The notes under the pieces are model-generated. The model was not told the DNA's origin, ran no database searches, and saw only the letters and a program-made list of their open reading frames with translations. From IMG/VR virus record IMGVR_UViG_2671180847_000008: a stretch of 46,714 nucleotides of DNA. One strand, 5' to 3'. Each line of letters begins with the position of its first letter. Position 1 is the stretch's first letter. The position numbers and the translations under genes were made by a program. The DNA is from a virus. Taxonomy: Duplodnaviria > Heunggongvirae > Uroviricota > Caudoviricetes. Of the stretch, positions 1 to 10,788 are shown piece after piece.

Positions 1-708
1 ATGTGGGTCAATAAGTATATTGACGATTGCACTGATGAGGATTTAAACGATCGTGACTTTATTGCATCAGTTGTTGACCGGGCTATTTTTCATTTCGCGA
101 TTAATAGTATATGTAATCCTGGGGATAATAAAGATGCAATGCCCATTGAACAATGTACTTTTGATGTAGAAACTAAGAATGACCTTCCCTCCACGGTTCA
201 GCTATTTTATGAGGAATCTAAGGATAATGAACCTTTAGCGAATATACATTTTCAAGCAATAGGTTCTGGTTTTTTAACGTTTGTTAATGCCTGCCAGGAA
301 CATGATGACAACAGCTTAAAATTATTTGCTTCGCTGTTAATTTCACTTTCATATTCTAGTGCCTACGCAGATTTATCAGAAACAGTGTATATTAATGAAA
401 ATAATGAGAGCTACCTGAAAGCTCAGTTTGAAAAATTATCTCAACGTGATATGAAGAAGTACCTGGGAGAGATGAAGCGTCTGGCTGATGGGGGAGAAAT
501 GAATTTTGATGGCTATCTGGATAAGATGTCACATCTGGTGAATGAAGGAACGCTCGATCCTGATATTTTAAGCAAAATGCGAGATGCTGCACCACAATTA
601 ATTAGCTTCGCGAAGTCGTTTGACCCAACCTCAAAGGAAGAGATTAAAATACTTACAGACACTTCTAAATTAATTTATGATTTGTTCGGGGTTAAATCGG
701 AGAAATAA
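1..708 (+). CDS. yjbM: Host hypothetical protein, YjbM-like (235 aa); may be complete, begins at window edge
   Basis: Single long ORF directly upstream of the dusA promoter region, the position yjbM occupies in E. coli K-12; identity recalled from memory, not searched. AT-rich. Confidence 0.5.
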   Translation: MWVNKYIDDCTDEDLNDRDFIASVVDRAIFHFAINSICNPGDNKDAMPIEQCTFDVETKNDLPSTVQLFYEESKDNEPLANIHFQAIGSGFLTFVNACQEHDDNSLKLFASLLISLSYSSAYADLSETVYINENNESYLKAQFEKLSQRDMKKYLGEMKRLADGGEMNFDGYLDKMSHLVNEGTLDPDILSKMRDAAPQLISFAKSFDPTSKEEIKILTDTSKLIYDLFGVKSEK

Positions 709-6980: not shown

Positions 6981-7343
6981 TTAACGACCTGCTGCGCGGA
7001 GTTTTCCGTCAGGCTCACCGGCAAGAGTCAGTAATTGTCCCTGGTCTTCCTGCAGAATAGTCAGGCGACCACCGCGATTGACATACATCGGCGTTTCGGT
7101 GGTGTCTTCTTCGGAAATTTTCCCGCGGTTAGTCGGACGAACATATGAGAGTTTGTGTTTTATTTTCACACGGTTCTCATCAAACGGTTCGATTTCCAGG
7201 TTGAGCGAGACCTTACCTTTGGTTTTCGTGTTCATCACACCGGAAGCGACTTCACTGAGAACTGCGCCGATTTTGGTTTCAAATACGCCGCCGTCCAGCT
7301 CCCCGATAAATTCCTGCACGTTGGTACTGCGTTCGCTAGCCAT
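6981..7343 (-). CDS. YfdP-like early protein; start at MASERSTNV
   Basis: ATG at 7343 with RBS AGGAG 7 nt upstream; the 77 codons of track ORF upstream of this start are R/S/C-rich and look non-coding. Confidence 0.65.
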   Translation of the reverse strand: MASERSTNVQEFIGELDGGVFETKIGAVLSEVASGVMNTKTKGKVSLNLEIEPFDENRVKIKHKLSYVRPTNRGKISEEDTTETPMYVNRGGRLTILQEDQGQLLTLAGEPDGKLRAAGR

Positions 7344-7950
7344 TTTGCTGCTCCTCATCATATCGACCCTGCAAGGTCGGTTGGTTTCTCCACAAAACAG
7401 AGAAGAACACCTGCGGTGACTGCCGCCCGGATGGATTGGGTTATGAGCCCGTCGTCCGGTGATGCTCTTCTCTGTTTTGTAAAAAGAGCGGTACCAGCCG
7501 GAAGCAAGTGTACAAACTGGTACCGCCAAAGCAGTGGCTGTTGTGGTGGGGTTGTCACTCAGGCGTATGGTCAACCTGACAATCCGGTGTCCTCAACGGG
7601 GAAAGAGTAACCCCGCCATACTTACCGCCGCGCCATTTCGCGGATTACCACAACGCTGAGAGCACTTAGCCAGTTACGGCACCACACTTTGTCGCGGTTC
7701 CATAAATGCCCTCATCGTTGCACCCTGGTCTCTTCCCAGGCGTCAAACCGGATCGCCGCGCTGGTTAGGCGTCTTATCAGCATCATCATTGACTTGCACA
7801 TTCCGGCTACCTGGTTTGTTTGCCCGAGCAGGAGTGGATTGTCCCCTTTAACGTCCCCAGACCGCTAACGACGCATGTGCCATACGCCGTGTTACAACCA
7901 AATTTTGTTAGTACCTTGTTTGTAGGTCTGGAAAGAAAGATAAAATGAAG

Positions 7951-7989
7951 TTGCGCATTATGCAAGTGTTTTTATTGCGAGATATGCAA
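7951..7989. promoter_or_regulatory. Candidate OL/pL: two 15-bp operator-like sites
   Basis: TTGCGCATTATGCAA (7951-7965) and TTGCGAGATATGCAA (7975-7989) share the TTGC-N7-GCAA pattern with the site in the cI-cro intergenic region; they overlap a possible leftward promoter. Confidence 0.45.
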
Positions 7990-8000
7990 TTTGGTGGGTA

Positions 8001-8023
8001 ATGAAAAGCCACCTTCTGGTGGC
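8001..8023 (-). terminator. Terminator of the repressor transcript
   Basis: GCCACC-TTCT-GGTGGC hairpin followed on the minus strand by TTTTCAT, just past the repressor stop. Confidence 0.6.
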
Positions 8024-8045
8024 TAATTGATGTTGAGGTAGGAGG

Positions 8046-8738
8046 TTAATTGTGTCGCTTAAGGGTTTGTGACTGACTGATTAAGACCTTTCCAAAGACC
8101 ATAAACCGGTGTTCGTTTTCGCTGGTAATTCCCCATTCGCGGTAAATCTGATTATCAGAAATTACCAGCAGTTTATCAGGTATCATTTGCAGTCGTTTGA
8201 CGTAAATTTTATCATCAAAACCAAATACATATATACCATCCCCATCAAACTGATTGATACTGATATCAACGAAGATGAGATCTCCTGGCTCAATGGTTGG
8301 ACACATACTGTCCCCACGAACGTTGATAACTTTAATGTGATTTGCTGGTCGTCCACCAAACATCGATACAGCATTATCAGTTCTGTATTCAATGGCATGA
8401 ATCACATCAATGACATCACCGCCCTGGATAAGGCCATTTCCCGCACTGGCACTGACATCCAGCATTTCAATACGGAATACATCCTTCACCTGCGCAACAT
8501 CCTCACTAATACTGTTTTTACATACAGTATTACTTTTGAAGTCTGAGGTAAAGAGATCAGCAATATCAACACCTAAGCTCCTGGCAATATTACTCAGGGC
8601 TTGTTCAGTGAATTGTTTCTGCTTACCTGTTTCCAGGCGTGAGATATTCGCCGCATCCACTCCTATTGCTTCAGCGAGATCGGCGATTTTCATGTTCTTC
8701 GCCTGGCGAAGTTGTCTGACTCGATTTCCTATGTTCAT
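8046..8738 (-). CDS. cI: CI-like prophage repressor (HTH plus S24/LexA-like peptidase domain)
   Basis: N-terminal HTH (KIADLAEAIGVDAANISRLETG); C-terminal GDSM Ser and VKRL Lys autocleavage motifs; ATG with almost no leader, as for lambda cI. Confidence 0.9.
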   Translation of the reverse strand: MNIGNRVRQLRQAKNMKIADLAEAIGVDAANISRLETGKQKQFTEQALSNIARSLGVDIADLFTSDFKSNTVCKNSISEDVAQVKDVFRIEMLDVSASAGNGLIQGGDVIDVIHAIEYRTDNAVSMFGGRPANHIKVINVRGDSMCPTIEPGDLIFVDISINQFDGDGIYVFGFDDKIYVKRLQMIPDKLLVISDNQIYREWGITSENEHRFMVFGKVLISQSQTLKRHN

Positions 8739-8744
8739 GCGTTT

Positions 8745-8821
8745 ATTACATTTCTTTATTGCGCGTTAAGCAAATCAACTTGCGCAAAATATTTGCGTGA
8801 AATAATATGCTCATCACGCAA
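8745..8821. promoter_or_regulatory. Divergent immunity promoters with operator-like repeats (candidate pRM/pR/OR)
   Basis: Rightward TTGCGC-N17-TAATAT (8780-8808) ahead of cro; leftward TTGCTT-N17-TGTAAT (8773-8745) ahead of cI; TTGCGCGTTAAGCAA (8759-8773) plus inverted TTGCGTGA...TCACGCAA (8793-8821). Confidence 0.55.
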
Positions 8822-8835
8822 TATGTGGAGGTCAT

Positions 8836-9096
8836 ATGCAATCACCATTACGGAATGTGCGTAAGGCGCACGGATTTACTTTGCAGCATGTTGCTGCGGG
8901 CGTTCAGGTCAATCCAGCGACGCTGAGTCGTATTGAAAGACTGGAACAAATTCCATCTATCGATCTTGCAGAACGTCTGGCCAATTTTTTTAAGGGTGAA
9001 ATCAGCGAAATGCAGATTCTTTATCCGGCACGTTTTCAATCTAGCCAAAACCAGAATGGGTTTAAACCACAGGAACAGGAGGTAAGCCGTGGGTAA
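8836..9096 (+). CDS. cro: Cro-like HTH repressor
   Basis: ATG with RBS GGAGG; HTH FTLQHVAAGVQVNPATLSRIE; divergent from cI. Confidence 0.85.
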   Translation: MQSPLRNVRKAHGFTLQHVAAGVQVNPATLSRIERLEQIPSIDLAERLANFFKGEISEMQILYPARFQSSQNQNGFKPQEQEVSRG

Positions 9097-9640
9097 GCAT
9101 CACTGGAAAGTGGAAAAACAGCCTGAGTGGTACGTGAAAGCTGTCAGAAAAACTATCGCGGCGTTGCCGGGGGGTTACGCTGAAGCTGCTGACTGGCTGG
9201 ATGTAACAGAGAACGCTTTATTCAACCGCCTTCGTGCAGATGGCGATCAGATTTTCCCGCTGGGATGGGCAATGGTTTTACAGCGCGCGGCTGGCACTCA
9301 CTACATTGCGGATGCTGTCGCACAGTCTGCTGGTGGGGTGTTCGTATCGCTTCCTGAAATTGAGGAAGTAGAGAACGCCGATATAAACCAGCGCCTGCTG
9401 GAAGTCATCGAACAGATCGGGAATTACTCAAAGCAGATTCGTTCGGCAATCGAAGATGGGGTCGTGGAGCCACACGAGCAGACAGCAATTAATGATGAGT
9501 TGTATCTGTCAATTTCGAAGCTCCAGGAACATGCAGCACTGGTCTACAAAATCTTCTGCGCTCCAGAAAAGAGTGACGCCCGCGAGTGTGCAGCTCCGGG
9601 CGTCGTGGCGTTTTGTGTCTGTGGAGAAACTAACGCATGA
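9089..9640 (+). CDS. Early regulatory protein of uncertain function, in the position of cII
   Basis: GTG start with RBS AGGAGG 8 nt upstream; 183 aa; immediately downstream of cro. Confidence 0.6.
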   Translation: MGKHHWKVEKQPEWYVKAVRKTIAALPGGYAEAADWLDVTENALFNRLRADGDQIFPLGWAMVLQRAAGTHYIADAVAQSAGGVFVSLPEIEEVENADINQRLLEVIEQIGNYSKQIRSAIEDGVVEPHEQTAINDELYLSISKLQEHAALVYKIFCAPEKSDARECAAPGVVAFCVCGETNA

Positions 9641-9785
9641 ACAGTTTAACGGCAAATAACCGTTTGTCGCAACAGCTGGTGGTCAGTGTCGCTGAACACC
9701 TGTTGTTACGGCATGAATGCAGATTACCAAATCACCTGGCTGTAAGTAACCACAGAGAACTTTACCTGACTGTGGGGGGCGAGTT

Positions 9786-9965
9786 GTGCAGGAACTTAAC
9801 CGCTGGTTTCGTGACGGAAGAGGGCTTTATGTCCATGTTATTCGTTGGGAACCAGAAACACAGCGCGTTATCTATCTTCGCAAAGACTACCCGCATGAGT
9901 GCTTTAGTCCTTTGTGGAAATTCAGGCGTGATTTTGTTGAGTGTGAAGGACCACCAGCACATTGA
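9786..9965 (+). CDS. Candidate small ORF (59 aa) in a different frame from the 383-aa track ORF
   Basis: GTG start preceded by a G-rich RBS; protein-like translation (NRWFRDGRGLYVHVIRWEPETQRVIYLRKDYPHECFSPLWKFRRDFVECEGPPAH); followed by a terminator. Confidence 0.3.
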   Translation: MQELNRWFRDGRGLYVHVIRWEPETQRVIYLRKDYPHECFSPLWKFRRDFVECEGPPAH

Positions 9966-10050
9966 TTCTGCCATTCCGGGACGTTACACTGTTCAGGCAC
10001 CTTATAAAACGGGTGCCGGGCGTGGAAACCCGGAATTCACCAAAGCGCAC

Positions 10051-10074
10051 AACCGCGCTCTTGCGGTTTTTTTG
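10051..10074 (+). terminator. Rho-independent terminator inside the early-right operon (tR1-like)
   Basis: AACCGC-GCTCTT-GCGGTT hairpin followed by TTTTTTT. Confidence 0.65.
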
Positions 10075-10242
10075 TGTCATGAGCAGCATTACGCCCAAAT
10101 TATGGTGGGGCGTGCAGGGCCAACTTCGGTTGGGCCGGGTTCTTTGGTGACCGGTATTTCCACCCCTGTACGTCTCACCACCAATAAGGTCGTGGAAAGC
10201 CTTGGTGGTGAGTTATTAAAAATCACCAAAGAGGCTGCCATC

Positions 10243-10788
10243 ATGGCTACGATCCCAACCCTCACTCAACCTGAAATTGCCATCGTTGATGGTCAGGCTG
10301 TTACTTCATCCCTGGCTGTTGCCAACTTCTTCTCCAAACGTCATGACGATGTACTGAAAAAGATCCGCACGCTTGAATGCTCAGCATCATTCACTGCCCG
10401 CAATTTTTCGGTGAGTGATTACACTGATTGCACAGGTCGCAAACTTCCTTGCTACCAAATAACCCGCGACGGCTTTGCGTTTCTTGCTATGGGTTTCACG
10501 GGTAAACGTGCTGCCCAGTTCAAAGAGGCATACATCAATGCCTTTAACCAGATGGAGAAACAGCTTTCAAATCCCTCTGTACTGAGCGACGTTGCACATA
10601 ACGCCAGCGTTCTCTATTCCTACATTTCATCAATTCATCAGGTCTGGCTGCAGCAGCTTTATCCTATGTTGGCAAAAGCCGAATCTCCGCTGGCTGTTAG
10701 CTTGTATGACTATATTAATGATGCTTCGGCACTGGCCTGCCTCATAAATTTGTCGCTGAACCCTTCAGAGGTAAGGGGGCGCAAATGA
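10243..10788 (+). CDS. Rha-family phage regulatory protein (antirepressor-like)
   Basis: ATG with RBS AAAGAGG; Rha-domain-like N-terminus (TIPTLTQPEIAIVDGQAVTSSLAVANFFSKRHDDVLKKIR); the upstream 200 codons of the track ORF are judged non-coding. Confidence 0.75.
   Translation: MATIPTLTQPEIAIVDGQAVTSSLAVANFFSKRHDDVLKKIRTLECSASFTARNFSVSDYTDCTGRKLPCYQITRDGFAFLAMGFTGKRAAQFKEAYINAFNQMEKQLSNPSVLSDVAHNASVLYSYISSIHQVWLQQLYPMLAKAESPLAVSLYDYINDASALACLINLSLNPSEVRGRK

Follow-up and report, generated by a model that had tools for sequence, protein, structure and literature searches.

TTGC-N7-GCAA dyads around cI are probable CI/Cro operators of a lambda-type immunity cassette in a lambdoid prophage

Do the 15-base pair (bp) dyads that flank the cI repressor gene of a lambdoid prophage, IMG/VR virus record IMGVR_UViG_2671180847_000008, serve as the left (OL) and right (OR) operators of its immunity switch? 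A preliminary description of this stretch (46,714 nucleotides (nt), the whole of which is called the window here) had noted the pattern TTGC-N7-GCAA twice to the left of cI and once between cI and cro, together with an inverted pair, and had read these as an OL/OR organisation that overlaps divergent promoters and defines the immunity specificity of the phage. In the present analysis, we found the sites to be present and conserved, to overlap conserved promoter hexamers and to be associated exclusively with one repressor family. Judged from sequence comparison, they are very probably CI/Cro operators of a lambda-type immunity cassette that control three early promoters.

Three exact TTGC-N7-GCAA 15-mers were located at 7951-7965, 7975-7989 and 8759-8773, as had been reported. 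A motif search across the window gave 6 matches against 2.0 expected, a weak enrichment that was reached in 2 of 100 shuffles, yet three of the six fall around cI, within 568 non-coding bases for which the expectation is 0.024 (Poisson P = 2.4e-6). It is the clustering around cI that is telling, not the window-wide count, and the pattern is not a product of chance. We then scored the window with a symmetrised weight matrix built from relatives whose repressors are 67-84% identical, the window and its close kin being excluded. Four sites scored 18.5-22.2 bits, all of them within the same 568 bases, and the next best among 46,694 positions reached 10.5 bits. The remaining exact matches (10428, 14395 and 20880) were rejected as further operators, lying inside long open reading frames (ORFs) and scoring at most 6.6 bits with the family matrix. 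The fourth strong site, ATGCTCATCACGCAA at 8807-8821, has one mismatch and had been overlooked, as had a weak fifth site at 8857-8871 inside cro. The inverted pair of the preliminary description, TTGCGTGA (8793-8800) and TCACGCAA (8814-8821), does exist, with arms that are 100% complementary, but it is not a unit of its own: the right arm is half of the site at 8807-8821, and the left arm is a half-site confined to closer relatives with repressors at least 93% identical. The family consensus of the 15-bp dyad is TTGCRYRWYRYGCAA.

To compare the arrangement we drew 14 immunity regions, their repressors 67-100% identical, from the enterobacterial genera Escherichia, Shigella, Salmonella, Citrobacter, Klebsiella, Pseudescherichia, Buttiauxella and Trabulsiella. 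The TTGCR/YGCAA arms are constant among these relatives, whereas the site centres and the surrounding spacer diverge. Two strong sites, here called a and c, lie in the cI-cro spacer. A perfect site a stands at -35/-36 from the cI ATG in 14/14 relatives, with invariant TTGCG and GCAA columns, and the form TTGCR-N5-NGCAT of site c stands at -83/-84, again in all 14. On the other side of cI, the OL sites occur at stop+53..57 and stop+76..81, and a pair of them with a gap of 7-9 nt follows the cI terminator in 11 of the 14. In Escherichia, Shigella, Salmonella, Citrobacter, Klebsiella, Buttiauxella and Trabulsiella, the offsets -35, -83, stop+53..57 and stop+76..81 are all maintained. Two loci, L013 from a Pseudescherichia metagenome-assembled genome and L014 from Klebsiella spallanzanii, keep the OR sites, but one or both OL sites are gone; both loci probably represent prophages in decay in which the repressor and the sites for its autoregulation persist. 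When the cI-cro spacers are aligned, the invariant columns are the cI start, ATTACA, TTGCG and GCAA of site a, a 10-bp block ACTTGCGCAA, TAA-AT, ATGC and GCAA of site c, part of the ribosome-binding site and the cro start.

The sites also go with the repressor family. Repressors that are 43% identical (PhiR34_1 and Salfasec13b) have no TTGC-N7-GCAA sites beside them, and neither does the spacer of e14 in K-12, which has GTAC-type dyads instead and an unrelated repressor, YmfK. For a wider survey we used 100 viral contigs with enough upstream DNA, gathered by a 19-mer of an RNA element downstream of OL and thus independently of cI and of the sites. The repressor family was called at a full-length identity of at least 60%, and sites were counted between cI and the RNA at a score of at least 12 bits. 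Results showed two or more sites in 21 of the 22 contigs with this cI family, and no site in any of the 78 contigs without it (21/22 vs 0/78); 17 of the latter carry other S24 repressors. Furthermore, the left flank matches phage Ayreon, whose cassette is of the e14 type, and the match ends at about 7906, some 25 bp downstream of the predicted start of the leftward promoter (PL), and Ayreon's own dyads start just beyond this boundary. A mosaic boundary just outside the sites indicates that OL, cI, OR and cro move as one unit, and sites that travel with both regulators in one exchangeable cassette would set the immunity specificity of the phage. These results support the OL/OR organisation: the sites lie on both sides of an HTH_3 and Peptidase_S24 repressor that faces an HTH_3 cro, they hold fixed offsets in relatives with as little as 67% repressor identity even as their central bases and the spacer diverge, they are missing beside 43%-identical or unrelated repressors, and the mosaic junction to a phage with another immunity lies immediately beyond them.

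Pfam placed HTH_3 (1.1e-10), together with HTH_26 and HTH_31, in the N-terminal part of CI and Peptidase_S24 (E = 5.9e-19) in the C-terminal part. By its N-terminal HTH_3, CI is an XRE / 434-type helix-turn-helix (HTH) repressor, and the best solved-structure match to its DNA-binding domain was dh434 (E = 2e-4), whose name suggests a derivative of the 434 repressor. The translated S24 domain contains Ala99-Gly100 (SASAG), Ser144 (GDSM) and Lys181 (VKRL), and with this Ala-Gly site and Ser/Lys pair CI would be a self-cleaving repressor of the LexA/S24 kind. The recognition helix of its 434-type HTH, A29-A-N-I-S-R-L-E36, aligns with that of Cro, A28-T-L-S-R-I-E34, in the common motif A-[NT]-[IL]-S-R-[IL]-E; such similarity is expected if both proteins read the same sites. 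The records of mEp460 (L002) and Stx2a_1447 (L006) give cI as 648 nt with its start at Met16. A start there would delete the first helix of HTH_3, for which the Pfam match begins at residue 7, so the ATG at 8738 is the likelier start of cI. This ATG is conserved in all relatives, 6 nt past TGTAAT.

The overlap with divergent promoter elements, which the preliminary description had put forward, held good: the sites lie over conserved -35/-10 hexamers of three predicted promoters, PL, the rightward promoter (PR) and the promoter for repressor maintenance (PRM), and the hexamers and spacings of all three are conserved across the family. On the left, the minus-strand right half of the promoter-proximal OL site is the PL -35 hexamer TTGCAT (7960-7965). 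The distal OL site, 24 bp away from centre to centre, overlaps no promoter element. The 12 relatives that retain OL have a counterpart of the PL -10 element (TATCTT/TAATTT, with TATCAT and TATGGT in two loci) equally far from the -35 hexamer, in columns that are partly conserved. On the right, site a spans the PRM -35 hexamer and 9 nt of the spacer, so that it and the proximal OL site each lie over a -35 hexamer and part of a spacer. The PRM -10 element is followed by 6 nt (AAACGC) and then by the cI ATG; its complement ATTACA is invariant in 13/13 aligned relatives, and its distance to the ATG is kept (7 nt in one locus). This 6-nt gap and the lack of a Shine-Dalgarno sequence suggest that the cI mRNA is leaderless. 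Site c extends from the final two bases of the PR -10 element to about +6. The element reads TAAYAT in all relatives. Its final AT forms the outer mismatch that site c always shows (ATGC, not TTGC, on the plus strand). GGAGG at 8827-8831 precedes the cro ATG at 8836.

Between sites a and c, which are 48 bp apart, the window has a half-site alone. The block ACTTGCGCAA is invariant at 10/10 columns in 13 relatives and offers a single arm in the window; only 4 of the 13 relatives (Kp4873-4, Flotzy, Buttiauxella and C. amalonaticus) extend it to a full site with one mismatch, at 9.7-13.6 bits. The block is probably a weak middle operator, and OR would have two strong sites and a middle position that is one-armed in the window. 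The additional TTGCG at 8793 is kept in the window, Stx2a_1447, SfII and two Citrobacter loci (repressors at least 93% identical) and is missing from Adana, Kp4873-4, Flotzy and other loci. CGCAAAATATTTGCG (8783-8797), an everted repeat, was dropped, whether as a site of its own or as a PurR-like box, its conservation ending at close relatives. The weak palindrome inside cro belongs to a class of sites that was left out of matrix construction. At its offset, -133/-134 from the cI ATG, scores of 7.9-20 bits were found in 13/13 relatives, a tally that includes the Pseudescherichia locus without an evident intact cro start, and only 7 positions of the window reach 7 bits. This palindrome (8857-8871) may be an auxiliary operator, with the reservation that constraint on the coding sequence is inseparable from operator conservation. 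No intact cro start is evident in the Pseudescherichia locus L013.

These features suggest an ordinary switch of the lambda style. CI dimers, and Cro after induction, would recognise the 15-bp dyad. With the sites at 7951 and 7975 on and just upstream of the PL -35 hexamer, their occupancy would block early leftward transcription; site c, over -10 to +1 of PR, would shut off cro, the cII-like gene and the replication genes; and site a, over the PRM -35 hexamer, would limit the synthesis of cI itself. At PL, PRM and PR alike, the TTGC arm of a site would double as the TTG of the -35 hexamer. Transcription from PRM would start at the cI ATG or about 1 base from it, giving the leaderless cI mRNA. 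RecA-stimulated self-cleavage of CI at Ala99-Gly100 would lift repression. In this account, binding, transcription start points, filling order and cooperativity are predictions from the DNA.

Several observations weigh against reading the sites as such operators. Literature searches by phage name, site sequence and pattern gave no description of an operator, binding, footprint or transcript, and no description in print of the operators of this immunity group was found. A generic promoter scan called none of PL, PR and PRM, because each -35 hexamer matches TTGACA at 3/6 positions and the scan needs 4/6; the leftward candidate that it did offer, TCCACA/TATTAT (8829-8802), is not conserved in relatives and was set aside. 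Sites a and c are similar in matrix score, and a shut-off of PR before PRM is not indicated. A full middle site is absent in the window, and cooperative activation of PRM as in lambda is not to be assumed. The surveyed loci are moreover interrelated, with about 10 distinct OL sequences in the 21 positives, so that the counts overstate independent events; despite this kinship, the separation of sites and repressor family in the 100 contigs is complete.

How the right side works is the point at which a different account has most to offer. OR may hold only the two sites a and c, with negative autoregulation of cI, the cro-internal site and perhaps looping to OL, and with no activation of PRM of the OR2 type. 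We consider this a reasonable possibility, though on balance a doubtful one. Only two OR sites of the window exceed 12 bits; at the middle position, 9 of the 13 relatives stay under 5.5 bits, eight of them under 5 and Pseudescherichia at 5.3-5.4; the cro-internal site keeps its offset throughout; and a middle site would centre near -49 from the PRM start, about 7 bp beyond lambda OR2, which lies at about -42. However, ten invariant base pairs in ACTTGCGCAA exceed the needs of a -35 hexamer, four relatives turn them into a one-mismatch site, and the 48 bp from a to c, like the 47-48 bp between OR1 and OR3 of lambda, leave space for a weak middle site that is filled cooperatively.

It is improbable that the dyads are bound chiefly by a protein other than CI, be it Cro alone, the CP76-type CII-like protein or a host regulator. 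The recognition helix of Cro is indeed similar to that of CI, and the everted repeat at 8783-8797 loosely resembles the host PurR box. Yet the repeat has neither the right spacing nor the central CG, and relatives do not keep it; in the contig survey the sites go exactly with the cI family; the OL sites adjoin cI and are far from cII; and a host factor leaves the movement of the sites with the cassette unexplained. More improbable still is that the pattern is -35-like TTGC with chance palindromes, or DNA or RNA hairpins, and not a set of protein-binding sites. TTGC does overlap the -35 hexamer at three promoters, and the enrichment in the window as a whole is modest. Against this, the GCAA arm is invariant at its fixed distance of 7 nt, outside any hexamer at 7975 and 8759, the distal OL site has no promoter element to explain it, and the clustering around cI is significant. 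Hairpins or terminators were ruled out by stems of 4-5 bp, loops of 5-7 nt and the lack of a T-run, and transcripts from these promoters would not contain the OL sites, site a or most of site c, all of which precede the predicted starts. Operators for CI and Cro account best for the features collected in Table 1.

Table 1. Features of the immunity region, with positions in the window (promoters and operators are predictions).
Feature	Position	Strand	Sequence or elements	Remarks
PL (predicted)	7965-7937	-	TTGCAT 7965-7960, 17 nt, TATCTT 7942-7937	inferred from sequence and conservation
OL promoter-proximal operator (predicted)	7951..7965		TTGCGCATTATGCAA	exact site, 18.5 bits
OL distal operator (predicted)	7975..7989		TTGCGAGATATGCAA	22.2 bits, top score in window
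cI intrinsic terminator	8007..8024	-		GC-rich hairpin then TTTTC; between cI transcription and OL/PL
cI repressor	8046..8738	-		230 amino acids (aa), HTH_3 N-terminal, Peptidase_S24 C-terminal
PRM (predicted)	8773-8745	-	TTGCTT 8773-8768, 17 nt, TGTAAT 8750-8745	from sequence and conservation
OR site a (predicted)	8759..8773		TTGCGCGTTAAGCAA	exact site, 18.9 bits
Invariant block	8778..8787		ACTTGCGCAA	PR -35 hexamer and overlapping half-sites, both orientations
PR (predicted)	8780-8808	+	TTGCGC 8780-8785, 17 nt, TAATAT 8803-8808	from sequence and conservation
Extra half-site	8793..8797	+	TTGCG	left arm of the inverted pair of the preliminary description
OR site c (predicted)	8807..8821		ATGCTCATCACGCAA	one mismatch, 19.7 bits
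cro	8836..9096	+		86 aa, HTH_3; faces cI
Weak operator-like palindrome	8857..8871		GTGCGTAAGGCGCAC	cro codons 8-12, 7.9 bits, 50 bp from site c

PhiR40_1 and PhiR55_1, both Escherichia phages, match positions 1157-25000 of the window at 98% identity, as mEp460 largely does. The 1.6 kb around the sites are 99% identical to PhiR47_1, mEp460 and phiSTEC1575-Stx2k, 96% to the Shiga toxin 2 (Stx2) phages 1720a-02, Stx2a_1447 and WGPS2, and 90% to Shigella phage SfII. The divergent cI and cro genes are separated by 97 bp, and a CP76-type CII-like gene comes next after cro. A hairpin and T-run are found at the position of the cI terminator in all relatives. The first gene past PL is yfdP-like, with its start near 7343.

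Between PL and this gene lies a leader of about 590 nt, whose conserved core of about 230-250 nt runs from 7903 down to about 7650 on the minus strand. This element was matched by nhmmer from 7903 to 7675 (minus strand, E = 2.5e-47), in one copy in the window, and its 19-mer GGTAGCCGGAATGTGCAAG (7811-7793, minus strand) occurs in more than 120 viral contigs. The element is found in P1, in the gap between trnI and ban, in the P1-like phages D6 and SJ46, in Klebsiella phage ST512-KPC3phi13.3, and in phiV10/epsilon15-like phages, where it stands directly before a tRNA-Arg gene; identity across the sharing phages is 76-88%. A tRNA gene lies within -1200 to +1500 nt of 34 of the 107 distinct copies, invariably on the same strand, and 32 of 37 nearby tRNA genes either stop about 95 nt ahead of the 19-mer or start 163-171 nt past it. 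In an RNAalifold alignment of 53 representatives, in which the 19-mer columns are fixed by how the set was collected, three helices showed compensatory changes, with 9 of 27 pairs changed on both sides. The clearest of them is the hairpin CCUCG-GAAGAGA-CGAGG, with the variants CCUGG/CCAGG and GCCGG/CCGGC. Rfam gave no family for the element, at gathering and permissive thresholds on the window or at gathering thresholds on 10 diverse loci; ARAGORN found no tRNA in the window; and blastn and nhmmer showed no similarity to the early region of HK022, which should contain putL and putR. A search for the conserved motif strings of the element gave no paper, and the supplementary material on the HK022 put structure lacks them too. 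In two relatives (L031 and L061) OL/PL of the same type lies only about 10 nt ahead of its 5' end. PL thus appears to transcribe a conserved structured RNA candidate. Going further, the immunity switch might directly control a class of phage non-coding RNA not described before, perhaps an antiterminator made of RNA alone or an RNA linked to tRNA; this idea is tentative, and we think it rather unlikely.

Two other leader segments were observed. The next part of the leader, window 7548-7643 (minus strand), is 75% identical over 97 nt to P1 68739-68832, the start of the C1-controlled ban operon, and this P1 interval overlaps an annotated 'dicF-like region'; the Rfam DicF model had no match in the window. 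Salmonella phage Adana and phage Flotzy (L003, L005) and e14 of K-12 (L017 1640-1700) have in common another, conserved leader segment after their PL, AACAGGCAGGA-GCCCACGAAGTAGCC, which stands in place of the RNA element of the window and adjoins different immunity cassettes.

Rfam matches were also obtained on the plus strand, to isrK at 9997-10073 (67.9 bits) and to the C4 antisense RNA at 10098-10185 (83.6 bits). Both lie inside a 383-aa 'ORF' (9637-10788), upstream of its Ash and Rha domains, and this ORF is probably an over-call. The isrK/C4 locus resembles the antirepressor control of P1/P7 immI and the isrK locus of Gifsy-1. The phage may have a second, RNA-based layer of immunity.

The cassette was found in 1040 of 5426 complete E. 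coli genomes at 80-100% identity, and among Stx2 phages in Stx2a_1447, WGPS2, phiSTEC1575-Stx2k and 1720a-02. The present work gives an operator consensus and a promoter map for a group carried by about 1/5 of complete E. coli genomes and by several Stx2 phages. It allows mutually immune prophages to be predicted, and provides targets for the study of repression and of toxin-phage induction. Biologically, the system is a variation on the lambda switch and no new principle.

Among known systems, e14 of K-12 (ymfK, ymfT, ymfL) has the same gene order, and the cII-like neighbour is annotated YmfL in relatives of the window; phage Ayreon joins an e14-type cassette to the left flank of the window. 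The same immunity as e14 is ruled out by the different dyads and by YmfK, which is unrelated to CI except for a short S24 stretch (38% over 39 aa). The operator region of the Stx2 phage 933W, a lambdoid Stx-phage switch, was the subject of Tyler, Mills and Friedman in 2004. OL of 933W has two repressor sites only; its repressor and operator sequences differ from those of the window. With 434 and P22 c2 the locus shares the XRE-type fold, short dyads whose outer arms of 4-5 bp are conserved and whose centre varies, and, as predicted here, CI and Cro acting on the same sites with similar recognition helices. The sequence relationship to them is distant and no operator is in common: the arms are TTGC/GCAA here and ACAA/TTGT in 434.

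Lambda itself differs in several ways. Its sites are 17 bp, not 15 bp, and its OL has three sites, not two; in the window, the middle OR site is one-armed, an extra weak site lies inside cro, no rex genes stand between cI and OL, and the DNA-binding domain of the repressor is of the 434/XRE type. PL is followed by a long non-coding leader here, not by the N gene, and on the PL strand no ORF of at least 30 aa falls entirely past the predicted PL start (7930-7575). The locus thus lacks the first PL unit of lambda, an N-type gene with its nut site, which is a feature of lambda itself and not of the operator arrangement, and the SfIV genome paper describes SfII and its relatives as being without N (PMC3851460). 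The architecture is nevertheless that of lambda: divergent cI and cro, dyad operators over PR and PRM, a second operator cluster beyond cI at a leftward PL, adjacent OL sites 24 bp apart, a LexA-like cleavage domain in the repressor and a cI mRNA predicted to start at the ATG. The distance between the outer OR sites is similar, site a being placed like OR3 and site c like OR1. The mechanism is thus probably lambda/434-like, with a site sequence and a two-plus-two arrangement that appear particular to this group.

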